Shown here piece after piece: positions 4,003-64,000 of a DNA stretch of 64,000 nt. Made by a program: the position numbers and the translations under genes. Numbering within the stretch: the stretch's first letter is position 1; every line of letters begins with the position of its first letter. Source of the DNA: Lytechinus pictus (taxonomy: Eukaryota); NCBI RefSeq assembly GCF_037042905.1, contig NC_087252.1:3598001-3662000 (forward strand), given 5' to 3'. The notes below the pieces were generated by a model that worked only from the letters and a program-made list of their open reading frames with translations, was not told where the DNA came from and did not search any database.

Positions 4003-4078
<76 letters not shown>

Positions 4079-4161
4079 AAAGTTATACATGTACAACAGC
4101 TTTGGCAACTCTTTTATTTAAATATTGTAAAGAAATGGATGAAGAGAACAATATAATATAT

Positions 4162-10200: not shown

Positions 10201-12171
10201 TTAACTGATGGAAAAGGTACCTGTTAAAGACTGCTTGCAATTAGCCATGAAGACGTTACATATTTCAACAATCAAATAATGCGAGCGCGAAGCGCGAACT
10301 GAAATTTTTTGAAATTTTTACCTAAAGACTGGAAATTCTAAGCACTTTTTGTAACTTAAACATATAATAGGTATATAACTAAACAATTGATGCGAACGCG
10401 AAGCACGAGCGGAAGGTTTTGAGATTTAGACCTAAGAACGAGACACTCTGTTAATGTTTTGTAAATCATGAAAAGGATGAGTAATTGGGGTCTTTCTTAC
10501 ACCCGGTCCTTACATTAATAAAGCGAGTACAAAATGCAGCCAGAAAATGTTCATATACGTTTAATTTGAATTGATCGAAAGGGTACTTGTTAAGGACTGC
10601 TTGCACTTAGCCATGAAGACGTTTCATATTTCAACAATCAATGCTAGCGCGAATCGCGAGCTGAAAATTTTTGACATTTTTTCAAAAAGAATCGAAAATT
10701 TTAATCAATTTTTGTAATCGTGAACAGGGTAGCTATATAACTAAACAATTGATGTTAGCGAAGCTTGAGCAGAAAATTCGAGATTTAGACCTAAAAACGG
10801 GACACTCTACTCATGTTTTGTAAATCATGAAAAGGATGAGTAATAGGGGATCTTTCTACATTAATAATGCGAGCACAAAGCGCGAGCAGAAAATTTTTGA
10901 TATTGTGATCTGAAACTGGATAATGATTTAAATAGAGAACAAATTGAATATCTTAATAAACATGATCGTGTTTCAGATTTTATACCTAGAATCTCGGCAT
11001 TTTACACATCTATCAGCGAGCGCGAAGCGCGAGCTTAAACTATTTGATATTCCGATCTGAAAAAAAGAGTCAATTTCAGCTATATATTTCAAGCACTTTG
11101 TAGGAAAATTGTGAGGTGAATATGGATCACACTTAATAAAGAGCTGATATTTTTCATTATTATTTGAGTTTTGACATAGGACCGGGACATCCTTAGGACA
11201 AGTCATATGAAAATGATGACTATCTTCCTATTCCTCTTACTAAGCGCAAGATGAAACAAAAGGGACAATTTAATCATTAAATTGATATCTTATTTATTAA
11301 TGCATAATGCGGGCGAGAAATCTGATGATATTATGGCCTGAAAACTGGACATTTCAAACACTTTTGTAATTATAGAATGCATCAGTTAAAACATTTTAAC
11401 CATCAATGCGAGCGCAAATCGCGAGCCAAAATCTTTGATAAACTGTCATGAAAATCAATATTGAGACATACATAAATCGCCAATCAAAATACGAGTAGCA
11501 CTATCTGCTACGTTTTGACAATCAGACTTGAAAAGGGATATTTTCAAACTAAATGGAATACACAAAAATAATAGGTACTGAATAAATCGAATTTTGCGAG
11601 CGCTCAGTGCGAGTAGAAAATGTCAATATTCAGACCATAAAAACTGTAACTTTTACAGATCAATTTTTAAAAAATCCGTTTGTAAATCACACAAAATAAT
11701 GAAAGTTTGATTTCCGAGGTGAAATGTATAATGTATATTGACTTCCAAACATGATATTTAAGCTCCATATTGAAAAATCACGGCTAACAGGCAATGCGAG
11801 CGCGAAGCGCGAGCGAAAATTTTATATAGTGACATGAAAGATTCTTTTTATTTTCCAAGTTTTCCCCTCATCTTATTTTATTCACTCTGGAAAATTTGAC
11901 AAGCAAAAAAAACAAAGGTTTTCGCCAAAAATGTAAGGTCATTTAGTCCAAAATACACGTATTATTTCGAATGTGAATGATGCATTTTTCTCCATCATAA
12001 AAGACCAAAAATAGTAGGGGGACATTTGATATTGTGTCCCCCCTACTATTTTTGGTAGGGGGGACACGTCCCCCCTGTCCCCCCTGGGATTTCCGCCCAT
12101 GCCCAGAGCTATCTACCCTTTGGAAAAATTGGTGATGCCGTTCAAGCTGTTGTACATGTATAACTTTACAC

Positions 12172-12230
<59 letters not shown>

Positions 12231-31352: not shown

Positions 31353-34300
31353 TCACGCAGCCTTGTCCGCCCTTGCCACTGTTCTGACTGTAATACCATT
31401 TGGAGGTGATAGAAATCCGGTTCGGTTGAACTTCGGTGGAATCTAATTTAAAAAGAAATAAAGAAAAAATATATTAGTAATTGTATTGATAAAGACTACC
31501 GTTTACAATTAATTGCCATGAATGAAAAACACCTTGGAAGCGTTTCGGGTTAAATGAATGGGGGTAAAATTTGCATTTATGTTCCTATAGTGCAATAAGA
31601 TGTGAAGATAACATGTTAGCGATAGAAAGTAAGAAAATGTGTGGCTGACTTTGAATTATCAGTACTTTTTTTCCAAAGAACTGGGATATTAGTCAAGATA
31701 ATCATCTTGAAATTTAATTAAAATATAATTACTTGACTATCTACATGATCTGGAGTACAATAATATTAGCTATGGGTGTAGGCTAATTATTTTATCTTCT
31801 GATCCTTTACTACAGTATAGTGATATGGGTAATGAGATTTAATGAGATGTATTGTGAGATTTACACGCAGAACATACTGTTCGGGATTCGAATGCATTGC
31901 TATCTCTTTGTAAAAATCACAGTGTCTAGTATATCCCACAGGATGTCCTCATTTTGTTACGAGTATTTGAATACACTGTGAAATGATCTCCACACTGTAC
32001 AAATGTTCAAATTTTTCATTGTGAATCTCACATTGAGAGCCCTCGAAGTGAGCTCACTGTGAACCCAAGGACGTTTCCACAGTGTGAAAGAATCTTCACT
32101 CTGTTCAATTCGAGCATTTTATTAGTGTGGATCACATCTTCACATGGTCCAATTGTGAACAAACTTTGAACACATTGTGAACACACTGTGAACAAACTCT
32201 GAACATATTGTGACGACACTGGGAACACACTGTGAATACCCTCTGAACACACTGTGGACACATTGTGAATACACTGTGAACACACTGTGGATACATTGTG
32301 AAGACACTGTGAACACACTGTGGATACATTGTGAAGACACTGTGAACACACTGTGGATACATTGTGAAGATTGTGAACACACTGTGGATACATTTCAAAG
32401 ACACTGTGAAAACACTGTAAATACACTGTGAACACACTGTGAACACATTGTGAACACATTGTGAACACACTGTGAACACACTGTGGATACATTGTGAAGA
32501 CACTGAACACACTGTGGATACATTGTGAAGACACTGTGGATACATTTTAAAGACACTGTGAACACACTGTAAATACACTGTGAACACATTGTGGATACAT
32601 TGTGAAGACACTGTGAACACACTGTGGATACATTTTAAAGACACTGTGAACACACTGTAAATACACTGTGAACACATTGTGAAGACACTGTGAACACACT
32701 GTGGATACATTTTAAAGACACTGTGAACACACTGTAAATACACTGTGAACACATTGTGAAGACATTTTGAACACACTGTGAACACATTGTGGATACATTG
32801 TGAAGACACTGAACACACTGTGGATACATTTTAAAGCACTGTGAACACACTGTAAATACACTGTGAACACATTGTGAAGACATTGTGAACACACTGTGAA
32901 CACATTGTGGATACATTGTGAAGACACTGAACACACTGTGGATACATTTTAAAGACACTGTGGACACACTGTGAATACACCGTGGACACACTGTGAATAC
33001 ACCGTGAACACACTGTGAATACACCGTGAACACACTGTGAACACACTGTGAATACATTGTGAAGACACTGTGAACACCCTGTGTGAAACTGTGTTCTTCC
33101 AGTAGGGATGTTCGTGTTTGTTTGTTTTGGGGTTGGGGTTCTGTCTACCTCTGTCTGTGCGCATGTCTCCAACCGGAAGTTCTGAAGCACGCGGACGACA
33201 GCCATCTTGGTTTCCATGAGAGCAAAACGCATTCCGATACAGTTGCGAGGACCAGCACCAAATGGTTGCCAAGCGAAAGGATGCTGCTTGGCCTGTGCTT
33301 CCTTAGTAAACCTGTCAACAACAAACATGTTTGTAAATAGAATGGCTACAGTCTTAAAGACAGATAATTCTCTCCGTATATAAACCACAACGCCAAATTT
33401 TCCATACTACTAAAGTTTCATTCCTCGTTTTTCATTTGTTAATAGATCACATAATACATTACATGGAGGCACTATTATGTCTTGAAAAGTTGATTAATGT
33501 GAATATAACTAAATAAAAAAATAAAATAAAGTAATGAGAAAAAAATACAAACTCTAGGTAAGTTCTGCATTATAGGCATTGCCATTGCTATCAAGGTAAT
33601 TTTCAAACATTATTAAAATGGTGGAAATGGTACCTTTCGGGAATGAACTTCTCTGGTTCGGGCCAGTAGTCCGGGTCTCGATGGATCGTATACATGGGTA
33701 TGAAGACTTGAGTACCCTTCTCGATTGTTAAGCCATTGTGCTCAAATGTCTCGTTGCACATCCGGTTTGAACTGTAGAAGGATAAGAAGAATTGATAATC
33801 GATAATATGCTCAGACGCTTTGAAAGAAAAGGGGAAGAGCATAGATATGATTTAGCTAATGCATTTTATCTGCCATAAAGACATCATGTCTTTCTTTTTA
33901 ACATCTTGGGGATACTTGAAGACCATTTAAGGATCACGTGAGTAAATGCCTGACGTCTTTGAATGTTAAAAACGGAAAAAGAAATGGACAATCTTTCATG
34001 GTACATGCATCTGTTCACAAAAGATACCGGGGTCAATATGCAGTGGTTAGAGCATTGGACTCACAATCGCAAGGTTGTGAGTTCGAATTCCTTCTCTGCC
34101 ATTGTCTCCACTTTGATAAAAAGGCCCGATAGTAATTTCTGTCGTCTATAAGGTCAGCCACTGTGACTGGTTAACCTAAAATGACGTAAAATGTTTCCTA
34201 GGTTATTGATTATATACCAGCTTGTGGAGCGTCGTGGCCCAGTGGATTAGTCTCCGGACTTTGAAACAGAGGGTCGTGGGTTCAAATCCCAGCCATGGCG

Positions 34301-36116
34301 TAATTTCCTTCAGCAAGGAATTCATCCACAGTGTGGTGCACTCGACCCAGGTGAGGTAAATGGGTACCGGCAGGAAGTAATTTCTCAAAAAAGCTGTGTG
34401 CACCGAATAGGTAGCCTAGCTTAGCCGGGTAATAATAGCAGGGCCCGTTGGGAGAACAGTTTTCGGAACTGAAGTGGCTACCCTGGGTAAATATACCTTT
34501 ATTATTATTTTTTTTTTTTTTAGCTTGGCGTTTACCTACAAAACGCTGTCCAGCCGAGTTCCTTCGGGAGTTACCATAAACAGAAACAGACAAAGAAGAA
34601 ATGAAGAATAGGTTCAGGATGGAAACCAAGTAAACTTACACTGCAGCAGGTGGGAACATCCTCAAAGTTTCGCAGACCACTTGATCCAGGTAAGGCATGG
34701 TGGCAACAGACTTATACCCGACGTCGTCACGAGAGGGCGTCATATTGTCAATCTCCTGGATAAGCTTTTCCTGGACCTCAGGGTTGGTGGCCAAAGAATA
34801 CGCGATGAAACCTAGGAGAGTGGTGGTAGTCTCGGAACCAGCGGTAAAGAAGATCAGGGCCTGTGAGGCGGGAAACGCATAATCTTAACATCATAATGGG
34901 TGTGATACATTCATTAAAGATGATAGCAAAGAAAGTTCATGAACTGAGCCCCGTCATAGAAAAGTATTTTCTAAAAATGATGTACATTCATCCATTCATT
35001 GTTTTCTTGAAAATTCAAGTTGCTTCCCTTTGTTTACAAAAGACCTTGTGCACATTTCATGCATTTCGCCATGACGTTAATAGATTTCCATACATTTGAA
35101 GTAGATCGGATCAATCGTATCTCTTTGTATTACGGGGCCCAGTTCTACATAACTGTCTAAACCTGGTCGTATGTACATGTAGTCCATGCTACATCGAGGA
35201 AGTTACAAATTCAACCATAGATTTGGGGTTCGAGTCATGTCATATCTATCGGATGGTGATATTAAAGGTGGCTTAAAAAGTGAGTGTGTGGTTGATACAC
35301 GCCTTTGAAAGTTCAGTTCAACATACACATTCTGTGCCTTTTTAAAAAATGTAGGTATTTTCTTGTAAGCAGCAGCAAAACTGTCATTGCCACTGCCAAG
35401 TACCGGTGACAGTAGGAAGCATGATGTTTCTTCTTGAGAAAAGAAAATTTGACTGGTTGGGTTTTCAACTCGAATCTCATTGCATCTGAAGTGCTTCATT
35501 TACTCTGATCTGATGGTGTCATGACGAAGGAAATATATGGATGAGGCATTTGAGGGATTAGGTTGCAATTTGAGGCTAATTCATTAGTTTCTCAAAAAAA
35601 TCATTCAGGCGAATCTTAATACCTCAGTCACACTCCGTCTACGGCTGCCGTACGGCGAGTCGAAAACAGCTTTTTTAATATTTTGTTGTAATGGCTACAT
35701 ATAGGCGGTTTGAATAAAAAATGAATAAACCGACTGTTTTCGACTCGCCTTACGGCCGCCGTAGAGCAAATGTGACTGAGGTATAATGAGCTTAACAATT
35801 AAGGGGAGGATTATGTTGCTCTGTCAGAAAATGAACAAGAGCGATTGTAAATGTTGTTGTTTTGGACTTTCTGTAAGACTGAACAAGGCGGAAGTAACTT
35901 ACCTGAGCCAATACATCATTGTCTGTCAGAGGCTTTTTCTTGCCCATACCCCTTGAGTGATACTGGGTATCGTGATGTTTGTCCAAATCAGCATGGATAT
36001 CGTCCTCATCCTCCTCCTCTTCGGGTTTGTAGACTTTATTGATGTTTTCCTGCTTCTGCGCATCGAGCAATAACTGCAGGAAGTCAACCCTCTGAAAGAA
36101 AAGTTTATTCAGTCTC

Positions 36117-39500: not shown

Positions 39501-41931
39501 TGGTGTAGACCAAATTTGTGACAATTTAACACGTGACCTACCTACCTGTTTCATTTTAGCACCGCTGAATGTCGGGGTTAGGATATTTCTTATTTCCTTC
39601 CAGCGCTCGCCCTCAACGATGGAAACCATGCCTCGGAGTTCCTCTGGAATTGACGGAAAGGTCTTAGTGAGGAAGGATGAGAAGATGACAAGAAAGGATA
39701 ATATTAACAAAATATCCATAAGTTGATTCTGCGCGATTCGTCTGTTTTAATTGTATTTATAATTTTTATTACTATTATTATTATTATTATCATTATTATG
39801 ATTATTATTATGATTATATATTATCATCATCATTATTATAATCATCATCATTAGTATTCTCATTATCGTCATTATTATCTTCATCATTATTAGTATCATT
39901 ATCATCGCCATCATCATTATTGTTGTCATTTATTAGTATTCCAACTCGCCACTGCAGGCTAGTGGCTCACCCAACCTCCTTCCTTCCCCGAACCCAACAA
40001 GCCTAGGCCACGTTTCATAAAGACTTACAACCATTGTAACTTTGCCGTTAAGGCAAAACTATGAAAACCAATCAAAATCAAGGTTTCTCTGGTAGTTGCG
40101 AAAATAGCAAAGTTACGATAGTTGTAACGCATTATGAAATGGGCACCTGGACTAGAATGCAAACCCATTCCCGATACCCGGACTTTTCGCATTTACTACG
40201 GAGACACTCTCTACAACGCACCAATCCCTTTAAAAATGCAAGTCAAATCACAATGGAGAGCTGAGGGGCCAAAAGTTGGTGGACAGCAGCGGAATATGTT
40301 GATTCTGGATAACGACATATTTGCAATTGTTCGTCCGGTGCAAATCTTTGGAAGATCTTCTGTCCCAGTGTACCGATTTTCGACAAAGACCTGTCGGCTC
40401 TCAATAGTGATTTAAATCGCATTTTCAGAGGAATCGGATGTGCTGTAGACAGTGTCTCCGTAGTTAATGCGAAAACTCCCTACTTACAACTCTATTGTGG
40501 AAGTTATTGAAGCTTTTGACCAGAAGGTGCCGGAGAATCTCTGGATCAGCGATAACAATGGCGGGGGTGCTGAATGCGTATGTCCTGTACGACAAATTGG
40601 ACAACAACAACATCATTTTGATTAGGTATTTTAATATTTTTTGAAGGGTGGGACTTTTATTAAAAACGTGTCCACCATGCGAGATTTTCATGAAATAACT
40701 TTGATGTTTTATCCGACAGTTGCCACAGGAACTGAGCTTCTCAGCTCATCAAATACAAGGAAAGTGGTCAGTTCGGACAGCTTGTCAGACAACAGATATT
40801 GACGGAAAACTCTCCTGGTGTCAAGTTGGCTTTAGCAATTCCAGAAGGAAGAGAATAATAAACTTATTTTGGTGGGTTTTTTCATGACCGCTAATTTCAT
40901 TTTAATTGTTTTGTTAATTGAAAGAATAAGAAATTAGTATGACATAAACTGAAAGTTTTTAAATGAAGATTTGGCGAAAATTCATCAAAAAAGTTATGGA
41001 TTTTTTATCATAACTTTGTATCTTAATAAGAAATTTATTGTTGTGTTTTGGGGGCTTTTAAAATCGAATTCAGTATGTTCACAGTGATAGGTCTATCATG
41101 GAAATCATTACTCTTCACTTACCCGTACACCTTTCCATACTTTTTCCCCCACTTCTCGAAATTGTGAGGAATTGGCTATATAAAAAAGATGGATATGAAA
41201 TATTAACATTAGCAAGTATCACCCATCCCACATGAGCTAACCGCCTCTACCGTAAGACACACTTATACCATGTATACTTGTAGGCTAAATATCGTCCGAG
41301 TACCGTGGACTTTAACATCTGAAATTCTAACGCCAAGCGTGGACCTGCGTAGATAAAATTTCACTGCTAAATGCAGACAACTCCTATGTATAAAATGTCA
41401 CTCACTTACCGTTTGCTTACCCCTGTACTGCGACATTTTTTTAGGGGGGTCGGGGTTTCATTTTCACTTTATTTACACGCATGCGCAGTCTATTTACCTT
41501 TACAACAGCTTTGGCAACTCTGTTGTACATGTATAATTTCTCCATGCGTGTACTGTATCTAGGCAATAGCTTTGATCTAACTGAGGCATAGCGCTTGTCA
41601 TTGTTCAAAAAACACCTACACCCGATAAAGGAAAGTATAATTGGTATAGTGTCGAAAATCTGTTTATCTGACGGTCAATCGGATCGAGGTCGCCCTTGCC
41701 ACTAACCCGTCTCTGTGGTCTAGTGGTTAAGGCACCGGCGTTCAAAGCTGGGGGTCCGGGTTCGATTCCCGGCAGAGACATTCTTTCTGCATCACCAATT
41801 ATTCCAAAGGGCAGATAGCTATTGGGAACCTTGATTTAAGCTATGCCTACCATTGTTCTCTTCATCCATTTCTTTCACAACATATTTAGATAAAAGCTAT
41901 TGTACTGTACATGTATAATTTCTCACAGAGG

Positions 41932-41966
<35 letters not shown>

Positions 41967-44900
41967 GGGTGTGTGTGTGTATGTATACACAACAAAAAAA
42001 GTAAGTCCCCCCTAAATCAAATTGCTGTAACTTTTGAACGGAATTATTTTGAGATATGATATTTCGTAGGTGGTTTTTTACACTCATTAAGCAACCTCTG
42101 GGGAAAAATGAGATTGATCAGTTGAGTCATGCATGAGTAATTAAAGATTGAATTAAAAATGACAATTTTTGAAAGTCACAAGAGTCGTTTTTTCAGATTG
42201 TGCAAATACAAAGCTGGGCAAAAGTTGTTTTTAGGTGAATTTTATGGTGTTAATGCTGTTTTACTATCCATCATTTAGCCACTCCACACACAATTTTGAT
42301 ATCGTATGTTCATGGTTGAGTGAGCACAATAATGCACGGGCCGCGGGGGGGGGGGCTCAGCCCCCACTTTTTTCCAAAAGCATGTACGAAAATGTAAAAA
42401 TGACCATACGATTGTGATTTTTTGCATGGTCAGCCCCCCCCCCCCCCCCCCCACTTTGAAAACCGTTCCGCGGCCCCTGTATAGTGACGTATCATCAAAA
42501 GGGTTTATAGTAGTATCCTCTACAACTTGTTAGATCATGTTAAAATTTGAAAATGTTGGTGGCTCCCCCGATTATAGGCCCCTCCCCCATTTTAAAATTC
42601 TGGATCCACCACTGATTTGTCCATAAATTAAACTGATCATGAGAATTTGTAAGAAAAATACATTTATGCAGTATAAAGAGTATTCATTCCTAAGTTTTCG
42701 AATGTGCTCGCTCAACCATGAAAATTTTAAAACTTCGGAAAGTGTGTGGTGATAGAAATGATGGATGATAAAAACAACAGCAATTAAAGTCACATTTGAA
42801 ACCGAATTTGCCCCCAATATTCACTTTATTACCATTTAAAATGGGTCTGTGACATTGAAAATACCCAACTTCCCACTTTGATGTGTGCTCACTCATCCAT
42901 AAATAAACAAATCGATTTCATTTTTGCACAGAATTCTGCCCATAGGTTGATCAACATTACTGCCAAATGACATTGCTAAAGACAGCCTTGAAAAAAGTTC
43001 CACCACATTGAATAGGGGGTTACTTATTCTTAATTATATGCACCCATAGTGTACACAAGTCTATGAGAGAGGAAGTCATCATTTTAACAAATATGAAATG
43101 AGGGTTTGTTTCATGGACGGTTTTTGTTACTTCTGCCAACAGTTATTTCATGAAACTTCGCACATGGCTGCAGTGTAACACTATCCAAAATGTGCGCACA
43201 CCAAAATAACCATTTGATACGGCACAGAGTGGGGCCAGGGCCTTGAACTTTCTTCTCATTTGCATAATTTTCGAATATTGTGTGCTCACTGATGCATTAA
43301 ACATCGGGATTTTCATAAAAATCAAATCAAATGAACCATGCAAGGAGGTTTGTAATAGATATCCATAGTTACAAATTGCATTTTTTCCAATAACGTAAAA
43401 AAAAAGCTAATCACATTCCAAATGTTCATTCAAGTGTGAATGTTTAATTTAACGCCTTTGAATCATTGAAGCATGTTTATTGGTCATGAACATAACGAAA
43501 AAGTTGAGAAAAGATCATTTTCAGTTACCAAAATGAAACAATACTTGCCTATGATATTTGAAAATCGTATCTTTTGTTTTCAATAAATGTTCATTGAACC
43601 GTGAAACAATGAATATTATTGAAGATACTCTTCCCAAAAATAACTGTCATCATATTCTATCATTTTTATTGATAGAAATGTGTAAAAATCCAATTATAGC
43701 AAATTTGGACTTGTGTTCATTCAACCGTGAAATTTAGCCAGAAAAGTTGTATCGTCTTTTAGAAAGTACCTTTTACAAGCCTTCTGACTATTTTTCATGA
43801 TGAGAATGTGGAATTAGTTCCAATAAAAATGGAATCAAAGTCATGATATTTGGCGTGTGACTTTTGAAAAGTGACATTTTTGCCTTCTGACGGTGCTCAC
43901 TGAAGCATGACATAAAATACTCCATAACATTTACTCAGAGGGTAGCCTATAAAATTACCTACACGCTCATGTAAAAATATATTAAAAACTCGCATTGGTT
44001 CGGAAATTATTGATGTTTGTTTAAGGGGGGACTTACTTGTTTTGTTGTGTATATATCCAGTCTTACAAAGAGTTGTGATTGATCAAAAAACGTAAATTAT
44101 ATGGAAATCCCTCATCATAATCATCATTTTCCCAGTGGACAGCGATGAATGCATGAGTGTCCATCATATCTAGAAGTTTCTTTGAACAAACATGCATTTT
44201 AGATGTTGACACAGCTGGCTTTCCATAGTTGTGATTGATCGAATCAATCTTAACTTTTTGCAAGATGGGACCCAGACCTACCGATGTAAAGATTGGATTT
44301 CCAAACAGAGGAAGAGCAGGTTCGTAAGGCACTCCTCGCCTCTTCCAATAGCTGTGTGTCCAGAAGGTGGTGTACCTGGTCACAAATCAAAATTAATAAT
44401 ATAACGATAATTAAAAAAACTGACACTGATGGTCCTGGTGACGATGATGATGATGATGATGATGTGGATGATGAAAGATGATGATGATGATAAATGATGA
44501 CGATGGTAATGAATTGGCCAGGTACTAGTTTAATGGATCAGATCAATTTAAATATATGAATATGACTAGTGGCATTAATAAGCCATGCATCCTAATGGCA
44601 TTTATGTAGCAATATACATTGAGCCATCTGAACAAATTCATATTGATAATTATAATAATAATAATAATAATAACAACAATGATAATAATAATAATAACAA
44701 TATATATGAACTATATAGGGTCTTTTCCATTTTGATTAAATGTTCAAGGCGCTTGAAAAACAGCAAAAGCAAAAAGTAAAAATTAAGTACAAGGAAAAGT
44801 AAATTACAATAGAGGAAAATGTATGTCTTCAAACCTAGTACCTGCTGGTGTACAAATACAATTCATGTCGAATTCCGTATTTGGACATTTGTTTTAATTA

Positions 44901-47900: not shown

Positions 47901-50900
47901 ATTTTATTGTTATTGTTGCTGTTGCTATTTTGCACATATTCGGGTTTTTCATGTATATATATTTGATAATTAAAATGATTAATGTATATAAATTGCTTAG
48001 AGTGGAGGAAGTAAAATCTCAACCTAATTTCAACATAAGATTTAATGATTAAATACCCATGTTCAATTTGTAATAAATCTGTTAAAATAAATCAAAAGGC
48101 TTTGTTATGCACTGTATGTTCACAGTGGGTGCATATAGTTTGTGGCGGGGTCTCAAGAGAGACCTATGATTCAGATGAACTGTTTGAAAATTGGCAGTGC
48201 CCGAAATGTGTTCTCCAAAGTGTATTACCTTTTTGGAATGATCCTGATCTATCTACTGAAGTCGTGTATAACTGTAATAATATTTCTGTCGACGCACATG
48301 ATGATAGGTCAACCGAAACTAATGATTTTGCTCTAAAAGATATTAAAGGTATAAAATTAGCTCATCTTAATGTCAGAAGCATTGTTAATAAAGTTGCTGA
48401 TTTACAATGTTGGCTGAATAATAACCCTTATGATCTACTAGGAGTGTCAGAAACATGGTTAACAAAAGAACATTCTGATAGCTTGATTTCTGTTAAAGGT
48501 TATAAGTTTGAGAGGAAGGATAGATGTACTCATGGAGGTGGAGTGGGATGTTTTATATCAGAAAATTTATCGTATATAAGGAGATTGGATCTTGAATCTG
48601 TTGCCTTAGAAATAATTTGGTTGGAGTTGCAACGTAGCAATAGTAGCTCATTATTTATTGGTATATTGTATAGAAAACCGGATAATCATTTAGATTTTTT
48701 TGACAGTCTTGAAAGTAATCTTGAGAAATTGTATACAGTTACAAACAACGTCATCCTTCTTGGTGATTTTAACTGTAATATGCAAACCATAAATAATCTT
48801 TCTAGAAAAGTTTCCAGTCTCCTTACTACAATGCAAATGACACAGGTTATATCTGAACCCACTAGAATTTCACCACATAGCCAGTCAGTAATCGATTTGG
48901 TATGTATTTCTGATGCACTTGTTGACAATATTATTAAGTCAGGAGTGCAGTCAGCTGGACTTAGTGATCACTCTGTGATTTTTACTGCAATTAAAGGGAA
49001 ACATCAATCCCTTTCTCCGAAAATAACTAAATGTCGTTCATTCAAGTACTTTGACAGTGAGAAATTTAAAGATGATGTAAGGAAAGTTGATTGGCATGAG
49101 TTTTATTCCTGTGGGACTGACGTTGAAAAATTGTGGCACTATTTTAAAAACACACTCCTGGACATTTGTGACAGGCATGCCCCCGTGATATCAGTGCGGC
49201 AAAAACAAAGAGGGGTACCTTGGATAAATGATGATTTTTTGGTGTTAGCACGCGAAAGGGATTATTATCGAAAGCAATTTAGAAAAACAAGATTAATTTA
49301 TTGGTGGAATAAATTTCAGTTTTCCCGTAACAGAGCTAATAACTTGATTAAAAATTTGAAAAAGAAGTATTATCAGGACAAATTTAAGGACTGCGAAAAT
49401 GACATAAAAAAGAACTGGAACATTTTATCGAAGCTTATACCTAAGAAAAATAAAACCACGAGTCATGATGTTAAATTAACAATTGATAATGATCAAATAC
49501 CTAACAATGAAATAGCTCACGTTCTAAACAAAGCCTTTAATGAAGTCGGCTCAAGGTTGCAAGCCGCTTCGGGTAATTTCTCGAAAGATTTATTAAACAA
49601 TTTACAAACTCTGTTTATTCCAGATTGTGAATTTAAATTTTATGCAATCAAAAAGGAGTATGTTTTGAAAGAACTATTACATATTGATTGTTCGAAAGCG
49701 GTCGGAGTAGATGGCATTCACCCTAAGTTTCTTAAGCTGGCAGCAGAGAGTATAGATGGCCCTTTAACCCATTTATTTAATGCAACTTTACAAACTAGTG
49801 TTATTCCAGAAGATTTTAAAACAGCAAGAATTACTCCTGTACATAAGGGAGGATCATTTGATATTGACAGTTATAGACCAATTTCTGTGCTTCCAGTCCT
49901 GTCCAAAATACTAGAGAGAGCAATACATGATCAATTGTATAAGTACTTAAATGTGAATGATCTACTTGCAAATTGTCAGTCTGGCTTCAGACCGTCTTAT
50001 TCTACTGCCACTTGTCTAACTGAGATTACAGACTTTTTGTTTGATAAAATGGACCGAAAACATGTTACTGGTGGTATTTTCTTGGACTTACGCAAAGCTT
50101 TTAATGTTATTCCTCACAATTTTATACTTGCAAAACTTAAGTACTATGGTATTACTGGCAATGAATACAACTGGATGGAATCGTATTTAACAGACAGAAG
50201 GCAATTTGTAATGATTAACAGTTGTCGCAGTGAATTTTTGAAGATAAAATCAGGTGTCCCACAAGGATCTATACTGGGTCCATTGATATTTTGTATTTTT
50301 ATTAATGACATGTGTAATTTGAAATTGCATGTACATTCTAAAATGTCTCTTTATGCTGATGATACCGCCATTTTTAATCACGGTGAATCAATTAAGGAGG
50401 TACAAAAGTATTTGCAAGATGATTTTGATTCAATAAGTAAATGGCTAGACTTAAATAATATGCATTTACACCCGCAAAAAACAAAAGCCATGGTATTTGG
50501 TCAAAAGAAAAAGTTGAGGGGTGCTCATTTGTCAGTGAAATTCAGGAACATACAATTAGAAAATGTAAAAAAGATTAAATACTTAGGTGTCATGCTCGAT
50601 CCGGGCTTGACTTGGTGCGAACATATTACTAATATCGTTTGTAAAATATCTCGGGCAATAGGTTGTGTAAGGCGGATTAAGCACTTACTGTCCTTTGATA
50701 TTATGAAGAAGCTGTACTTTTCTATGATTTTACCTTACATTGATTACTGTATTACATCTTGGGGAAGCAGTGCAAAAATACATTTAGATAAGATACAAAA
50801 ACTTCAAAATAAATATGCCAGAATGCTTTTGAAAAAAGATTATAATACATCACAAATTTCTTTGTTGCAGTCACTGAAGTGGCAATCAGTAGATCAGCGT

Positions 50901-51731
50901 ATAAAATATCAGTATTGTGTTCTTGTATATAAAATAATGAATGATTTAGTTCCAAATTATTTAAAACCTTTAGTATGTAAACGGCCCGTGAAATACAGGA
51001 CACGGTATTCTTTACGATGCCCCCTTCAGCTTCCCAAAGCTAGAATTGAACATAAAAGAAAATCTTTCGCATATGTCGGACCCAAATTATTTAATGCACT
51101 TCCTTCAAATTTACAAGTTTGTACCTCCTTGTTAGTTTTTAAAAAATTATGCAAAGCCTTTCATACGAATTGATAAAGAGCGAAATGATATTCCATTGAT
51201 TTACAATGCTATGTATGTTTAAATTGTCACTTCCCACTCTATATTTTGGTGTTAATTGTTTCTGATGTTAGATATTTTGTATTTTGTATTTTTGATGTTG
51301 TTTGTTGTTGTTGTTCATAGTTATCTTGACATGTATTTTAAACTGCAGGGCGCCTTTGTAAAGCAGTTTTAAGAACTGAACAGGCCTACCCTGCAGTATA
51401 AAATAAATAAAACAAAATAAATAAATAAATAAATAATGAAAATTAAATAATGTAGGAATTTATAATGAATTTCAACTCTCAACTACATATAATATATAAA
51501 TATTCTGACAGTCTGCCTTTGGTAATAACTCTTTTGTCGGTCTGGAGTAGGTTAGCAAATCAGAATCTGTATTTCTCTTTTATGATGAACACAAAAATCA
51601 TAATAAGTTCCTTTCCATTTATCCAAACTTCTGCTCAAGACTTACCCAACGTAGAGGACAAGGAGTCCGAGGGTGAACATGGCCAAGAGCCATGTCAATG
51701 ACATCGGGAATCCCATAAACTCGATCTCCAT
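31353..51731 (-). CDS. Cytochrome P450 clan 3 (CYP3/CYP5-like), copy C, complete 13-exon gene, 542 aa
   Basis: Exons 51646-51731, 44282-44375, 41123-41175, 40488-40584, 39546-39662, 38955-39043, 38106-38254, 37019-37161, 35903-36091, 34640-34860, 33634-33771, 33149-33311, 31353-31442 sum to 1629 nt. Contains AGSETTT, ETLR, PERF and [11 protein letters not shown]. Confidence 0.95.
32150..33085. repeat. Degenerate minisatellite built from ACACTGTG(A/G)A-type units, intron 12 of copy C
   Basis: Dozens of acactgtgaac / acattgtgaag / acactgtggat variants; source of the spurious CSQCVHSVF ORFs. Confidence 0.95.
34030..34110 (+). mobile_element. tRNA-derived SINE head, degenerate
   Basis: GCAGTGGTTAGAGCATTGGACTCACAATCGCAAGGTTGTGAGTTCGAATTCC gives A/B boxes; acceptor stem does not pair. 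Confidence 0.5.
34224..34510 (+). mobile_element. tRNA-derived SINE, full length
   Basis: A box TGGCCCAGTGG, B box GGTTCAAATCC, core CACTCGACCCAGGTG..AAATGGGTAC, LINE-like 3' stem-loop, (ATT)n tail. Confidence 0.85.
35620..35783. mobile_element. PIF/Harbinger-like MITE, TAA TSD
   Basis: TIRs of about 50 bp, TACCTCAGTCACA... / ...TGTGACTGAGGTA, flanked by TAA on both sides. Confidence 0.8.
41220..41930. mobile_element. Dispersed repeat carrying the TCA tRNA-like gene; related pieces at 4074-4152 and 9762-9825/12102-12172
   Basis: The segment AAGAAATGGATGAAGAGAACAATGGTAGG..TCAAGGTTCCC..TTGGTGATGC and the TATACATGTACAACAGCTT motif recur at the other loci, which lie next to (TA)n tracts. Left boundary uncertain. 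Confidence 0.6.
41709..41780 (+). tRNA. tRNA-like gene with TCA anticodon (opal-suppressor-like cloverleaf) embedded in a dispersed repeat
   Basis: GTCTCTG-TG-GTCT-AGTGGTTA-AGGC-A-CCGGC-GT[TCA]AA-GCTGG-GGGT-CCGGG-TTCGATT-CCCGG-CAGAGAC-A: 72 nt, all four stems pair (G-U allowed), A and B boxes intact. Confidence 0.7.
41988..44049. mobile_element. Non-autonomous Tc1/mariner-like element, about 2.1 kb, TA TSD
   Basis: TIRs CACAACAAAAAAAGTAAGTCCCCC / GGGGGACTTACTTGTTTTGTTGTG flanked by TA; no transposase ORF; nested MITE near 42337-42479. Confidence 0.7.
45796..46548. mobile_element. Probable piggyBac-like non-autonomous element inside a Kolobok-like relic
   Basis: Starts TTAA-CCCT; GGGGGGCTGATTCAGCCCCCC-type hairpins near both ends; right end degenerate. 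Confidence 0.4.
47597..51438 (+). mobile_element. 5'-truncated CR1/L2-group (Crack/Daphne-like) LINE, antisense in intron 1 of CYP copy C
   Basis: ORF2 above; 3' UTR ends in a CAGGG...CCCTG stem-loop (51345-51393) then an (AAAT)n tail. Short upstream frame [24 protein letters not shown] could be an ORF1 C-terminal remnant. Candidate 7-bp TSD AATAATG at 47590-47596 and 51432-51438 is tentative, so the 5' boundary is uncertain. Confidence 0.85.
48045..51173 (+). CDS. Non-LTR retrotransposon ORF2: PHD finger + AP endonuclease + reverse transcriptase (CR1/L2-group LINE)
   Basis: 1042-aa uninterrupted ORF. N-terminal C4HC3 (CSIC..CTVC..H..C..CPKC); APE motifs HLNVRS, SETWL, GDFN, SDH; RT motifs [32 protein letters not shown]. 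Confidence 0.96.
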   Translation: MIKYPCSICNKSVKINQKALLCTVCSQWVHIVCGGVSRETYDSDELFENWQCPKCVLQSVLPFWNDPDLSTEVVYNCNNISVDAHDDRSTETNDFALKDIKGIKLAHLNVRSIVNKVADLQCWLNNNPYDLLGVSETWLTKEHSDSLISVKGYKFERKDRCTHGGGVGCFISENLSYIRRLDLESVALEIIWLELQRSNSSSLFIGILYRKPDNHLDFFDSLESNLEKLYTVTNNVILLGDFNCNMQTINNLSRKVSSLLTTMQMTQVISEPTRISPHSQSVIDLVCISDALVDNIIKSGVQSAGLSDHSVIFTAIKGKHQSLSPKITKCRSFKYFDSEKFKDDVRKVDWHEFYSCGTDVEKLWHYFKNTLLDICDRHAPVISVRQKQRGVPWINDDFLVLARERDYYRKQFRKTRLIYWWNKFQFSRNRANNLIKNLKKKYYQDKFKDCENDIKKNWNILSKLIPKKNKTTSHDVKLTIDNDQIPNNEIAHVLNKAFNEVGSRLQAASGNFSKDLLNNLQTLFIPDCEFKFYAIKKEYVLKELLHIDCSKAVGVDGIHPKFLKLAAESIDGPLTHLFNATLQTSVIPEDFKTARITPVHKGGSFDIDSYRPISVLPVLSKILERAIHDQLYKYLNVNDLLANCQSGFRPSYSTATCLTEITDFLFDKMDRKHVTGGIFLDLRKAFNVIPHNFILAKLKYYGITGNEYNWMESYLTDRRQFVMINSCRSEFLKIKSGVPQGSILGPLIFCIFINDMCNLKLHVHSKMSLYADDTAIFNHGESIKEVQKYLQDDFDSISKWLDLNNMHLHPQKTKAMVFGQKKKLRGAHLSVKFRNIQLENVKKIKYLGVMLDPGLTWCEHITNIVCKISRAIGCVRRIKHLLSFDIMKKLYFSMILPYIDYCITSWGSSAKIHLDKIQKLQNKYARMLLKKDYNTSQISLLQSLKWQSVDQRIKYQYCVLVYKIMNDLVPNYLKPLVCKRPVKYRTRYSLRCPLQLPKARIEHKRKSFAYVGPKLFNALPSNLQVCTSLLVFKKLCKAFHTN

Positions 51732-53289: not shown

Positions 53290-53866
53290 AGGGATGGTCC
53301 GGGCTGAAAGTATGTATAGCTTAATAAATAGATTACAATTCACTGAGCAAAATGCCGAAAATTTCATCAAAATCGGATAACAAATAACAAAGTTATTGAA
53401 TTTTAAAGTTTAGCAATATTTTGTGAAAATAGTCGTCATGAATATTCATTAGATGGGCTGATGATGTCACATCTCCACTTGTTCTTTTCTATTTTATTGT
53501 ATGAAATTAGGTTTATTCAAATTTGTTCCTCCAAGAACTAGAAAAATTGGATTGACAACTGAATAGTGCATTAGATAGTTATTGCTGCAACTTATTTCAT
53601 TATAAGGGAGACATATTATTCACACAAGTATGAAATAATGAAAAAAATATGATTTTATGTAATAACATAAGAAAACGGAAAGTGGAGATGTGACATCATC
53701 AGCCCACCTAATGAAAATTCATGACGACTGTTTTTACAAAATATTGCTAAACTTTAAACTTCAATAACTTTATTTGTTATCCGATTTTGATGAAAGTTTC
53801 GGCATTTTGCTCAGTGAATTCTACTCTATGTATTTAGATATAAATATGTTCAGCCCGGACCATCCT
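53290..53866. mobile_element. Fold-back MITE, Kolobok-like (TTAA-AGG start), long TIRs
   Basis: TTAAAGGGATGGTCCGGGCTGAA ... TTCAGCCCGGACCATCCT; arms pair for roughly 190 bp. Related relics near 13735, 26400-26990 and 45593. Confidence 0.75.
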
Positions 53867-61240: not shown

Positions 61241-61999
61241 CTGTAAATGTGACAAAACGTGTATGTCATATAAATTGCATGACATCGAATTTAAATGTAC
61301 AATGTCGTTTTGTGGCATCCCTGGCGGCAGTAGCGGACTGTGACCCGGAGGAGACAAAGCATTGGAGGGGCACTGTATTGTTTGTGAACAATGCTGTGCC
61401 CCCCCCCCCCCCCCCAATGCTTTGTCTTTTCCGGGTCACGGTCCGCCACTGCCTGGCGGTGACACGACATTTGCTCCTGTGACAATGGCTCCGGTCTTAA
61501 TTTCGTGTAAGATGTAGGGTTAGGGCTGCAATAGAGTTTGTATGTTAGGTTTAGAGTCAGGTTTAGAGAAGTGTATAGTGTTAAACCAAGGGCTGAATTT
61601 GGTCCTTCGATTAGTGTGTGGAATTTAGAACGGAGGAAATGCCATGGAACCTCTCCGGCAAGGTGCTGTTCCAGTTCTTACCTACACTTCCTGTCTCCCG
61701 ATACCATGCCTGCTTCGTCCAGTAGTAAGGAGTTATGACGGTACATTACGCCCAGGTAGAGTCAATATAATTATCAAAGCTCTTACATGGTACGAATATA
61801 TGAGGCGCCGAATGTTCCAATATTATATAGAACAATTATTTGTTATATAATCATTATTTATTAAATAATAACTATTATTTATATATAATTTACATTTTAT
61901 TTATAAATAACTACTATTATATAAAATATCATTTCTAATTATTTATAAATAATTGCAAGTAATACTTCATTATTTGTAAATAATAATAGTTCGACATTC

Positions 62000-62330
62000 C
62001 ATTATTTACAAATAATGATTATTTGTTTTTCATTATTTATAAATAATGATTATTTGTTTTTCATTATTTATAAATAATGATTATTTGTTTTTCATTATTT
62101 ATAAATAATGATTATTTGTTTTTCATTATTTATAAATAATGATTATTTGTTTTTCATTATTTACAAATAATGATTATTTGTTTTTCATTATTTATAAATA
62201 ATGATTATTTGTTTTTCATTATTAATAAATAATGATTATTTGTTTTTCATTATTTACAAATAATGATTATTTGTTTTTCATTATTTATAAATAATGATTA
62301 TTTGTTTTTCATTATTTATAAATAATTTGT
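62000..62330. repeat. 31-bp AT-rich tandem repeat, about 10 copies, with palindromic core
   Basis: Unit CATTATTTATAAATAATGATTATTTGTTTTT; degenerate copies extend over about 61850-62700. Confidence 0.92.
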
Positions 62331-63383
62331 TGAGTTTTCCATTATTTATAAATAATGATTATTTGTTAAATAATGAAAACGTCTACTTCATTATTTATAA
62401 ATAATTTTTTCGAGTGCACCATTATTCTCATTATTTATAAATAATCATTATTTAATGTTCGAGTTTTCCATTATTTATAAATAAAGATTATTTGTTAAAT
62501 AATGAAATATCTACTTCATTATTTATAAATAATAAGTTTGTTTCAATATCCCATTATTTATTAATAATCATTATTTATAAACAATTTTTACAGTTTGCCA
62601 TTATATACAAATAATCATTATTTATATACAAATAACCATTATTTATTAAATAATGCCATTATTTATTAAATAATGCCATTATTTATTAAATAATGGAAAA
62701 CTCGCTATAACATGCAAATGTGGGACCGCCCATGATATGAATATTCATGATGCGATTTCCTTTTTCGTGATTTTTCTTCACAAATTTTTGTCCATTTCCT
62801 CTTCATAATGACATTTCTTGAAGCAATTTTCTAGGGATATGGTCTGATTGTAATATTCTTCATTTCTATGTAACTTCGTCTTCGTAGAAATATCAAAAAG
62901 TGTAATTTTATACGATTTTTCCTACAGTTCACAATCCCCATAGGCGCGCGTGTATCGTAGGGACAACCGGTGAATCGACGGAGTGCTCTTCATCGAAATA
63001 CTACGTTGGTTGGTCCCCGGAAGTGGCGGGCGGAATTTAGCCCGAATCCTCGATGGAAGTCGATCAAGTGCATATGAGCTGAGAGAGTGAAATATCAGTG
63101 TACTTGTACAGGCCCTTCTACTTTTTATAAATATTTCTTGTTGCTTTTTTTGTTAAGTTAATTTTTCCTGGTGTAGAGATAAGTTTCAGTTCTAATAATG
63201 CACTTCAAATACATTTTGGAGTGTCTGTTTGAGGCGTTTGGGGCGATTTCACCCTGGCCCCAAAATGCTCGCAACGACAATACGGGGGCATGATGACCTC
63301 TAAATTTTTAAAAACTTATTTTTCTATTGAAAATTATCACAAAATTCACCAAAAGTGTGCACGAAAGCCTTCGTATTTCACTT

Positions 63384-64000
63384 TTAAAACTCCAAAAAGT
63401 GCCCAAATGACAAGCTTGGTCGCTTCGCTGTGTCGCTTTCAACTTGAGAACGTTTACGCGTCTGCTTCCCCCCCCCCCCCCACCTCCTCCGAAAGAAATT
63501 CTGTATACGGCCATGCTCTAAAGAGCCTGGCACATTGATTTATGTATACTTTCATTTTCATTATTTTTATCTCATTATCAACATGGCCTTACGCAGAATT
63601 TTTTCCAGGGGGGCCGGGGCCGGAGCATGACCGTAGACGCGCGTAAACTTTCTCAAAAAAATCTTGAAAGCGAGACAGCGACGCGACCAAGCTCAAATTA
63701 CAAGCTTGGTCGCTTCGCTTTTTCAAGATTTTTATGAGAAAGTTTACGCGCGTCCTGCTCCCCCCACCCCCCCCCCCCCCCCCCGGAAAAAATTCTGCAT
63801 AAGGCCATGATGATAATGAGATAAAAATAATGAAAATGAAGTATACATAAATCAATGTGCCAGGCTCTTTAGAGCATGGCCGTATACAGAATTTCTTTCG
63901 GAGGAGGGGGGGGGGGAAGCAGACGCGTAAACTTTCTCAAGTTGAAAGCGACACAGCGAAGCGACCAAGCTTGTCATTTGGGCACTTTTTGGAGTTTTAA
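63384..64000. repeat. Inverted duplication centred on a MITE (63582-63809), running off the right edge
   Basis: 63384-63612 is the near-exact reverse complement of about 63778-64000. Confidence 0.9.

Follow-up and report, generated by a model that had tools for sequence, protein, structure and literature searches.

At the centre of a very abundant non-coding repeat of 0.4 kb lies a tRNA-like cloverleaf, and the best reading of this element, in our view, is that it is non-autonomous and retrozyme-like, with the tRNA fold as a candidate processing signal. The repeat would be copied by a reverse transcriptase and endonuclease of the Penelope type and its cloverleaf kept for the tRNA-processing enzymes of the host, not for the decoding of UGA. 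Taken whole, this reading is tentative and we give it slightly less than an even chance, but its parts differ in strength: mobilisation of the Penelope type is quite probable, it is very probable that the fold does not decode, and, given both, a role in processing is moderately favoured. We refer to the whole stretch of 64,000 nucleotides as the window and to the one copy in it that carries the tRNA, with its unit at 41543-41924, as the focal copy.

The cloverleaf, 72 nt on the forward strand at 41709-41780, is the single gene that ARAGORN reports in the whole 64-kb window, where its label 'SeC' derives from the anticodon alone. With Rfam RF00005 its score is 60.9 bits (gathering score 29, E 1e-10) over model positions 1-71 of 71, and the minimum-energy and centroid folds both give the cloverleaf, at -29.4 kcal/mol; equally good folding was found in 4 of 200 shuffles. 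It has a 7-bp acceptor stem, a 7/5 fold, a 4-nt variable loop and A73, and no CCA is encoded. The A box lies at 41716-41726 (tRNA positions 8-19; sequence and motif scan) and the B box at 41759-41769 (positions 52-62; motif scan), so that the paired stems and intact boxes described in an earlier note on this DNA are confirmed by ARAGORN, Rfam, folding and motif scan alike. ARAGORN and the sequence agree with that note also on the anticodon, TCA at 41742-41744, in a loop (41740-41746) whose G32 (41740) is non-canonical by comparison with 62 other tRNAs. The SINE heads near 34030 and 34224, described in the same note as having lost acceptor pairing, give no ARAGORN or Rfam call and do not fold as cloverleaves.

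The unit around this cloverleaf measures 382 nt (41543-41924, forward strand, 43% G+C); its predicted fold is a long and imperfect rod that has the tRNA region at the tip. A 5' arm (41543-41708) is patchwise complementary (flank duplex z -5.1) to a 3' arm (41781-41881) that runs to a common short end, where depth and loose ends indicate that many copies pass into AT-rich sequence. An optional extension of about 43 nt (41882-41924), recognised from loose ends and from the window copy at 4061-4152, resembles the 'tail' of Penelope-like elements. In the matched runs depth falls after 41874 and loose ends lie at 41875-41879 and at 41896, and the two 3' ends, about 43 nt apart in the focal copy, are a few nt further apart in other copies. 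Upstream of the unit, 41522-41542 is the end of a preceding unit in partial tandem: 41524-41542 is identical to 41906-41924, an exact terminal direct repeat of 19 nt with a period of 382 nt. Before it, on the 5' side of the insertion, motif scan and alignment place an inverted, truncated and diverged copy of the unit end and junction (41474-41521, reverse strand), and an X2 contig reproduces this inverted junction (41390-41550) with 0 other letters. A (TG)n microsatellite (41938-41984), following a short TA run, adjoins the 3' end. The tRNA lies antisense to a CYP3A-like gene of the host, a Lytechinus sea urchin, inside an intron (41167-44281, reverse strand) bounded by exon matches at 44282-44374 and 41122-41166.

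Three further copies in the window, all on the reverse strand, lack the tRNA. The copy at 4061-4152 is a 5'-truncated 3' end with the extension and (TA)n on both sides, that at 9752-9825 is a 3' arm stopping at the short end in (TA)n, and that at 12107-12175 is interrupted and consists of (TA)n, the inverted extension and then the 3' arm, which starts just past the terminator position. All three touch (TA)n, and counting the focal copy 4 of 4 have (TA)n or (TG)n as a neighbour on one side or both; the unit end motif is present 4 times in the window, where the expectation is 0.00, and no target duplication was seen at the insertion. Among the 15 of 59 joints listed from the matched runs, six tie the inverted end to internal positions dispersed over 41688-41855 and two are head-to-tail (41896>41511 and 41894>41522). 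Summed RNA-read depth climbs from 209 to 843-865 over 13 bins between 41550 and 41874 (Spearman 0.99) and then stands at 146. Repeat depth reaches about 160 nt upstream of the tRNA, which bears out the earlier observation that the tRNA sits in mid-repeat and not at the 5' end of a SINE.

Family letters were taken from four of 24 listed sequencing runs, matched to the window, and are read here from the rows listed, 40 of 138 for differences and 12 of 36 for indels, and from the joints mentioned above. Depth is about 40 in the flank but 10^5-9x10^5 over 41550-41875, about 10^4 times as high, and contigs matched to the repeat number 5,283 in X4 and 2,474 in X7, where a SINE would need 100 copies or more. 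The earlier note had weighed a family-wide TCA against a private mutation; no anticodon change occurs among the 40 of 138 difference rows listed, so TCA is probably a family letter and not a change peculiar to the focal copy. The lowest best-run share among the repeat rows listed is about 84%, which leaves room for a weaker majority of another anticodon letter, and TCA is apparently family-wide in runs that carry two organism labels.

At 41783 the other copies have T (422,793 of 423,525 depth units in X4 and 403,487 of 404,332 in X7), and therefore the family runs to six consecutive T at 41781-41786, a terminator of the Pol III type that is broken at 41783 in the focal copy. A second run, T5 in the family at 41799-41803, is interrupted here at 41801, and a motif scan found no run of four or more T on the forward strand of the focal copy. 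The weak TTCTTT terminator remarked on earlier is thus true of this copy, but the family has T6, and the weakness is a matter of decay. The tertiary pair G15:C48 is likewise kept in the family and lost in the focal copy, because tRNA position 48 (41755) is C in 99.7% of family depth and T here. The family majority retains all four stems, G15:C48, the conserved tertiary positions, the A and B boxes and the terminator, its odd letters being confined to loops; the focal copy is without G15:C48 and the T runs. From the family majority the focal copy differs at 1 of 72 positions in the tRNA, compared with 21 of 269 in the flanks (Fisher p 0.033), a contrast that is biased by the choice of this copy for its intactness and goes to p 0.11 when six arm-pairing sites are dropped.

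The Penelope-type context suggested earlier for the repeat fits the anatomy of its insertions. Penelope-like insertions show truncation, tandem arrangement, an inverted piece, a tail and contact with microsatellites (PMC8557442), and the unit largely matches them: depth and window copies give 5' truncation with fixed 3' ends, and a partial tandem (pseudo-LTR) and an inverted 5' piece are present, with a direct repeat of only 19 nt in the focal copy. Non-autonomous insertions of the Naiad/Neptune type, MRC1 and other non-autonomous Chlamys have in common with the unit these three arrangements as well as the (TA)n bias, the lack of a visible target duplication and, its length apart, the optional 3' extension, and Naiads are, like the unit, without a hammerhead (PMC8557442). 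In contrast to all of these (PMC8557442), the unit has a complete tRNA gene and terminator in mid-element, and its autonomous RT/GIY-YIG partner is presumed. The published tail measures 30-40 bp (PMC8557442); the extension of the focal unit, at about 43 nt, slightly exceeds it. An intact LINE ORF in the window (48039-51173) was considered as a partner and set aside, as it has no similarity to the unit.

Passages of PMC7229834 describe animal non-LTR retrozymes as tandem-type units of 150-450 bp with G+C below 50%, strong self-pairing, no LTR, PBS or PPT and a proposed ride on Penelope-like elements, all of which the unit shares. Retrozymes have a hammerhead, whereas the unit has a tRNA cloverleaf instead: the CTGANGA hammerhead core is absent from both strands of 41495-41935, and Rfam gives no hammerhead match up to E 5. 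We suggest that tandem or read-through transcripts of the unit would be reverse-transcribed at nicks in (TA)n by a Penelope-type enzyme acting in trans, which would start at either of two sites, one near 41881 and the other near 41924; two RT start sites are the explanation offered for the tail of Penelope-like elements in an excerpt of PMC11167929. Exposed at the rod's tip, the tRNA would be recognised by its shape and then cut, by RNase P/Z-type enzymes or an anticodon nuclease, in place of the hammerhead cleavage of retrozymes; a processing signal of this kind was among the roles considered in the earlier note. For RNase P and Z, activity does not depend on sequence identity (PMC9976931, in excerpt). 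TCA, G32 and U20 may be changes of the master copy that fell in loops ignored by such enzymes, and would have left the RNA of the element poorly chargeable. Cut monomers do not suggest themselves as the template, since most copies retain sequence on both sides of the tRNA and, in the matched runs, neither the starts nor the ends of RNA reads pile up at 41709 or 41781; insertion of an anole element in vitro did not need hammerhead cleavage (PMC11167929, in excerpt). The T6 terminator, required by a Pol III gene and not by a processing signal, counts against the processing reading. So does the free fold of the focal unit, which breaks the cloverleaf, a shape that costs 11 kcal/mol to force. The rod is not exceptional for the window, since z <= -4 occurs in 3 of 20 control segments, and in the three other window copies the arms do not pair significantly with the focal 5' arm (z -0.3 to -0.9).

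Among other short elements, tRNA-derived SINEs (PMC3531059; Bov-tA2/CHR, PMC2680898; both in excerpt) resemble the unit in being short and high-copy, with A and B boxes, a shifted anticodon and AT-rich 3' ends. The unit differs by its internal tRNA with some 165 nt of element upstream and T6 at once after it, by its tandem and inverted arrangements and by full acceptor pairing. We rejected a SINE identity on the definition in PMC3531059, there being no tRNA head at the 5' end and about 160 nt of repeat upstream of the tRNA, and likewise SINE-type head-to-tail transcription by Pol III, in view of the family's T6 (41781-41786) and T5 (41799-41803). Helenus TRIMs (PMC10886601) are also non-autonomous retroelements with an internal tRNA-like sequence, in some families predicted tRNAs, and this assignment was dropped too: the unit has one tRNA, no LTR pair, a longest direct repeat of 19 nt and no 4-bp target duplication. 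No published description of the element was found in the literature searched. Patterns drawn from it had no match in viral contigs, the first of them containing the focal copy's private letter at 41755, or in metagenome contigs; a scan of genome contigs returned 9 unrelated tRNAs, and two of those genomes were without a match to a second pattern. By blastn the unit had no match in phages, and weak prokaryotic matches to the tRNA alone were set aside.

The alternative that survives best, unlikely as it is, holds that, in a single event, a Penelope-type unit picked up a tRNA gene of the host together with its terminator, and that this gene is without a function there; TCA and G32 would be hitchhiking mutations of the master copy, and the fold would be intact only through the youth of the family. 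A box, B box and T6 do amount to a complete captured gene, 3 of the 4 window copies are without the tRNA, and TCA is one change from Arg TCT or TCG and from Gly TCC. Penelope-like elements are able to copy sequences of the host in trans (PMC8557442), and there are known examples of young repeats derived from tRNAs in which the fold is intact and the anticodon shifted (PMC2680898 and PMC8450103, in excerpt). Yet the best of the 62 comparators, which are tRNAs of genomes other than the host, is identical at only 54 of 72 positions while all stems and G15:C48 pair, and the tRNA has fewer differences than the flanks, a weak argument. That comparator is a tRNA-Arg (L062); the best match of the Gly/Glu type is L005 (53/72). 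Candidate sources are tRNA-Arg and tRNA-Gly. With tRNA-Arg the cloverleaf shares the D stem, A26 and the anticodon and acceptor stems, with tRNA-Gly/Glu the D loop, the 4-nt variable loop and the T arm, and from tRNA-Arg and tRNA-Gly it differs in G32, A36, U20 and U2:A71. The likeness to Glu, Gln, Asp or Gly tRNAs proposed earlier holds for the variable loop but not for the D, acceptor and anticodon stems, which are closest to tRNA-Arg. One isotype comparison gave Gly 6, Glu 2 and Asp 1 of 9 matched tRNAs and another Arg in 46 of 53, and both outcomes depend on the letters fixed in the search pattern.

It is less credible that the tRNA gene is kept to bind TFIIIC and Pol III, the mobile transcript being made separately; a short uncharged tRNA-like RNA would result, and the chromatin of the element would be kept open or insulated. 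Captured small-RNA genes are promoters in Cassandra and Helenus (PMC10886601). An A box and a B box, both intact and in the family followed directly by T6 and T5, are consistent with this, as are inverted-end joints that, in some cases among the 15 of 59 listed, lie 6-35 nt upstream of the tRNA. It is near there that Pol III would be expected to start. T6 and T5 runs terminate Pol III, however, and the terminator would halt it before the 3' arm, leaving the unit's own RNA beyond its reach; the earlier suggestion of a Pol III promoter for the downstream part of the element is unlikely because T6 follows the tRNA directly and T5 lies at 41799-41803. A promoter has no need of acceptor pairing, and RNA depth has no step at the tRNA start, where 150-nt reads cannot show a 76-nt RNA.

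Less plausible still is a foldback or MITE-like DNA element, in which the arms would be decayed terminal inverted repeats, TA the target and the tRNA internal cargo. The focal unit folds as RNA with z -5.6, both strands show pairing between the arms (RNA z -5.6 and -3.0, DNA z -4.4), and the copy at 12107-12175 begins with the inverted end motif. Six differences of the focal copy from the family, on both sides, make the arms pair better, the outcome expected of hairpin-templated repair; this result is partly circular in that the fold was computed on the focal copy. Against a DNA element stand the scattered 5' ends, as opposed to two fixed 3' ends, the increase of depth toward the 3' end, the direct terminal repeat with head-to-tail joints, the patchy match between arms whose outer ends do not correspond, and the absence of any target duplication seen.

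A working opal suppressor, one of the options raised in the earlier note, is very unlikely: some copies would have to be transcribed by Pol III, matured, charged with Arg, Trp or Gly, and read UGA. The family does keep every stem, G15:C48, U33, A37, both boxes and T6, and TCA is apparently shared under two organism labels; A73, G1:C72, C35 and A36 are shared with the Trp identity set, C35 and A38 with that of Arg, and a rare human allele changing Arg-TCG to TCA is listed as a nonsense suppressor. But each of the Arg, Gly and Trp identity sets, known from organisms other than urchins, is present only in part, with Arg A20 and U/G36, Gly C2:G71 and C36, and Trp C34 absent. The cloverleaf has U20 where 46 of 46 Arg comparators have A20, a main Arg determinant in mammals, plants and E. 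coli and a marginal one in yeast. Position 32 is a pyrimidine in 62 of 62 comparators and a purine in none, so the earlier caution that G32 argues against an efficient translational tRNA was well placed. Thousands of active suppressor genes would, moreover, be expected to be harmful. The RNA-seq reads (150 nt) are uninformative on expression of the tRNA because they are equal on both strands over the repeat, 62% continue into unlike sequence and only 15 of 1,837 are at least 99% like the focal copy. We regard as similarly improbable the bolder version in which a retroelement has seeded thousands of Pol III tRNA genes with a UGA-reading anticodon, some of them charged as opal suppressors, while the same fold replaces the hammerhead.

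That the cloverleaf helps a Naiad-type partner to read an in-frame UGA as selenocysteine can be dismissed: the UCA anticodon and the Penelope-type context are all that favour it, while the 7/5 fold, 4-nt variable loop, A73 and lack of a long variable arm differ from the 9/4 eukaryotic tRNA-Sec (PMC8450103, in excerpt), as the earlier note had seen, and the Rfam tRNA-Sec family is not the best match. The link to Naiads drawn in that note fares no better, for the Sec-encoding Naiads come from two clams and two spiders, carry SECIS and are proposed to use it with a Sec-specific tRNA (PMC8557442); the supplement of that paper names no Lytechinus, Strongylocentrotus or other sea-urchin family, and two motifs of the unit were not found in its text.

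For annotation, tRNA finders are expected to label copies of this kind as 'SeC' or suppressor genes in large numbers, and if any copies were charged, natural suppression of UGA by a transposon would be a real surprise. At 0.4 kb and high copy number, in a laboratory animal, the element offers a substrate for the role of RNA cutting in Penelope transposition. If the processing reading is true, the tRNA enzymes of the host stand in for a ribozyme, and a tRNA-bearing rider of Penelope-like elements would be a third type of small-RNA-derived retroelement, after the SINEs that ride on LINEs and the Helenus and Cassandra elements that ride on LTR elements.

The tRNA cloverleaf at 41709-41780, midway along a 382-nt repeat unit (41543-41924), is a real feature, as the earlier note had claimed from the sequence alone. 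ARAGORN calls it as the single tRNA gene in the whole window, on the plus strand with anticodon tca, and the covariance-model check proposed in that note, once run, matches Rfam RF00005 over the full length at 60.9 bits (gathering 29, E 1e-10); the cloverleaf also comes out as the minimum-energy fold and as the centroid, equalled by 4 of 200 shuffles. In tRNA numbering it carries G1:C72, U2:A71, C3:G70 and A73 in the acceptor, G15, U20 and A26 on the D side, G32, U33, U34 C35 A36, A37 and A38 in the anticodon loop, and, in this copy, G44 and U48 in the variable region. The decay that had been described for tRNA-derived SINE heads nearby is confirmed, as neither is called by ARAGORN or Rfam and neither folds as a cloverleaf; the two are adjacent on the plus strand (34224-34500 and 34030-34100), the second having a long body and a loop of TTG type.

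Four of the 24 sequencing runs listed were aligned to 41200-41932 at 80% likeness: the DNA contig sets X4 and X7, the contig set X2 under a second organism label, and the raw RNA run X21. Contig depths add up to about 30-160 in the flank against 5.7x10^4 to 9.2x10^5 over 41550-41874, and at the tRNA it is some 10^4-fold over flank, depth not being equivalent to copy number. Among the 40 of 138 difference rows listed, the sole one inside the tRNA is 41755 T>C (X4 699,153/701,273; X7 695,266/702,128; X2 1,414/1,418; X21 600/619 reads) and none falls in the anticodon loop, while the anticodon-containing bin is the deepest of 30 in both X4 and X7. TCA and G32 are therefore very probably family letters, with room for weaker majority or minority variants, and TCA is probably not the private mutation that it might have been. 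Since 41755 is tRNA position 48 and the family letter there is C, the family keeps the G15:C48 pair. In the family, C>T at 41783 and A>T at 41801 moreover place T6 immediately behind the tRNA and T5 at 41799-41803, whereas no T run in this copy reaches four on the plus strand; the weak TTCTTT terminator held against the tRNA thus reflects decay in this copy. With these three features restored in the family, this copy is a slightly decayed member, and the family tRNA gene is more complete than first supposed.

The anatomy of the insertion points to how the unit may move. A direct repeat (41524-41542 identical to 41906-41924) sets the 382-nt period, the unit-end motif has four occurrences in the window where 0.00 would be expected, and 41474-41521 is the unit end plus junction, inverted and diverged. 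An X2 contig (depth 3.5; the run is possibly related to the window's source) is identical to 41390-41550, so the left junction is present in a sequencing run. The 3' ends are of two sorts, near 41875-41881 (into AT-rich sequence) and near 41924, as exemplified by the window copies 9752-9825 and 4061-4152; RNA-read depth, 209 at 41550, climbs steadily until it reaches 865 at 41825 (Spearman 0.99, 13 bins) and is 146 past 41874. Among the 15 of 59 joints listed, the inverted end is joined to scattered points within 41688-41855 and the 3' end leads back to 41511-41522. All four window copies adjoin (TA)n or (TG)n, and no target duplication was seen at the insertion. Craig et al. (PMC8557442) describe Penelope-like insertions by such traits: they are truncated at the 5' end, partly in tandem, biased to (TA)n, and can bear an inverted copy on the 5' side and a tail of 30-40 bp, Naiads being without hammerhead. 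The two 3' ends of the present unit lie about 43 nt apart. In Frangieh et al. (PMC11167929), the tail is put down to reverse transcription from two start sites.

Judging from this anatomy, a Penelope-type enzyme acting in trans would most likely copy the unit, with tandem or read-through RNA as the template and the tRNA fold as a putative processing signal standing in for a hammerhead. RNase P and Z are described as acting irrespective of tRNA identity (PMC9976931); the stems and tertiary pairs required by such shape-reading enzymes are kept and the loops required for charging and decoding have drifted, from which we take the fold to be a putative processing signal. As a whole this reading is our tentative preference, at slightly less than an even chance. 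A tRNA that is a mere passenger, without role in the element, is a lesser but real possibility. Weakly against it, the letters in which this copy departs from the family majority number 1/72 in the tRNA and 21/269 in the flanks (p 0.033, or 0.11 without six arm-pairing sites), a contrast that is weak because the copy was chosen for its intactness. That the tRNA is a Pol III-binding module seems improbable. The pattern in X21 fits copies riding inside host transcripts, where about a quarter of the run yielded 1,837 reads balanced between strands, 62% of them continuing into unlike sequence and 15 at least 99% like this copy; no pile-up of read ends was found in this run, whose 150-nt reads cannot show a mature tRNA.

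A foldback DNA element is marginally more improbable again. The predicted fold of 41543-41924 is an imperfect long rod with the tRNA region at its tip (z -5.6 for plus-strand RNA, -3.0 for minus-strand RNA, -4.4 for DNA), and the flanks by themselves pair at z -5.1. Three results tell against it: the free fold breaks the cloverleaf, and imposing the cloverleaf costs 11 kcal/mol; among control segments of the window, 3/20 lie at z -4 or below (12 shuffles each); and the 3' pieces of the three other copies pair non-significantly with this 5' arm (z -0.3 to -0.9), in similar registers in two of the three. This copy's differences from the family majority at 41578, 41580, 41590, 41801, 41844 and 41889 fall on both arms of the arm-to-arm helices and make the pairs Watson-Crick, so that hairpin-templated repair or a better-paired subfamily is possible, the test being partly circular. 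More palindromic or inverted-repeat elements lie at 40180-40479, 53292-53865 and 63384-64000, hairpins of this sort being frequent in the window. In size, 43% G+C and self-pairing the unit resembles animal non-LTR retrozymes (PMC7229834), but it falls outside them for want of a hammerhead: the CTGANGA core is absent from both strands, and the element has no Rfam ribozyme match.

A working, transposon-borne and family-wide opal suppressor is very improbable. Of two pattern scans, the one with D loop and T arm held constant found 9 tRNAs (Gly 6, Glu 2, Asp 1) and the one with the D stem held constant 53 (Arg 46, Trp 4, Asn 1, Met 1, amber 1), from prokaryote and viral collections, not the host; the closest in that set are a tRNA-Arg(CCG) (L062, 54/72 identical) and a tRNA-Gly (L005, 53/72). 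By these non-host comparators Arg appears slightly ahead as ancestor; TCA is one change away from TCT, TCG or TCC. Position 32 is a pyrimidine in 62/62 comparators against G32 here, and all 46 Arg comparators have A20 against U20. For Arg, Giege and Eriani (PMC9976931) name A20 and C35 as the chief determinants of mammals, plants and E. coli (marginal in yeast); for Gly they name C2:G71 along with C35 and C36, and for Trp A73 along with CCA. Each set is incomplete in this tRNA, which might still be weakly charged. The scans also returned two Ancylomarina scaffolds (443 and 822 bp) with tRNA-Glu then (CA)n (L001:69-140, L004:89-160), probably eukaryotic contamination, and a viral-contig tRNA with anticodon CTA (amber; L032:53-127). 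The selenocysteine helper, suggested earlier through Naiads, can practically be dismissed, since this tRNA has a 7/5 fold and a variable loop of 4 nt, bearing out the difference already noted from eukaryotic tRNA-Sec (9/4; PMC8450103), the Naiads reported to use Sec come from clams and spiders and carry SECIS elements (PMC8557442), and one supplementary file of that paper holds no Lytechinus or Strongylocentrotus entry.

The tRNA lies antisense within an intron of a minus-strand gene, between exon matches 44282-44374 and 41122-41166 (tblastn); an exon close by has matches in the cytochrome P450 3A-like proteins of Lytechinus pictus (96%) and L. variegatus (95%). By tblastn this CYP3A-like host gene belongs to a tandem cluster; at least four such genes stand in tandem at 2425-61273 (minus strand), two traced first-to-last exon. 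The first intron of the same gene also holds an apparently intact non-LTR retrotransposon (48039-51173, plus strand), an unbroken frame of 1044 aa whose domains are a PHD finger, an AP endonuclease and a reverse transcriptase. Where the microsatellite adjoining the tRNA unit ends, another element begins (41978-44059), about 2.1 kb between 44-nt inverted repeats 89% alike, with no frame of at least 100 aa inside; from its looks we take it to be of non-autonomous Tc1/mariner type. Tandem arrays at 32070-33090 and 61935-62400 have periods of 11 nt and 31 nt.

Unlike SINEs (PMC3531059), the element has an internal tRNA with an immediate terminator, and unlike Helenus (PMC10886601) it has no LTR pair, so it belongs to neither class. 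In general, tRNA look-alikes that reach high copy number and have shifted anticodons are already known (PMC2680898, PMC8450103); the literature searches listed no paper on a tRNA-bearing Penelope-type element or on this family, which may sit unclassified in Repbase or Dfam. In its workings the element would resemble a non-autonomous unit of Penelope or retrozyme type.
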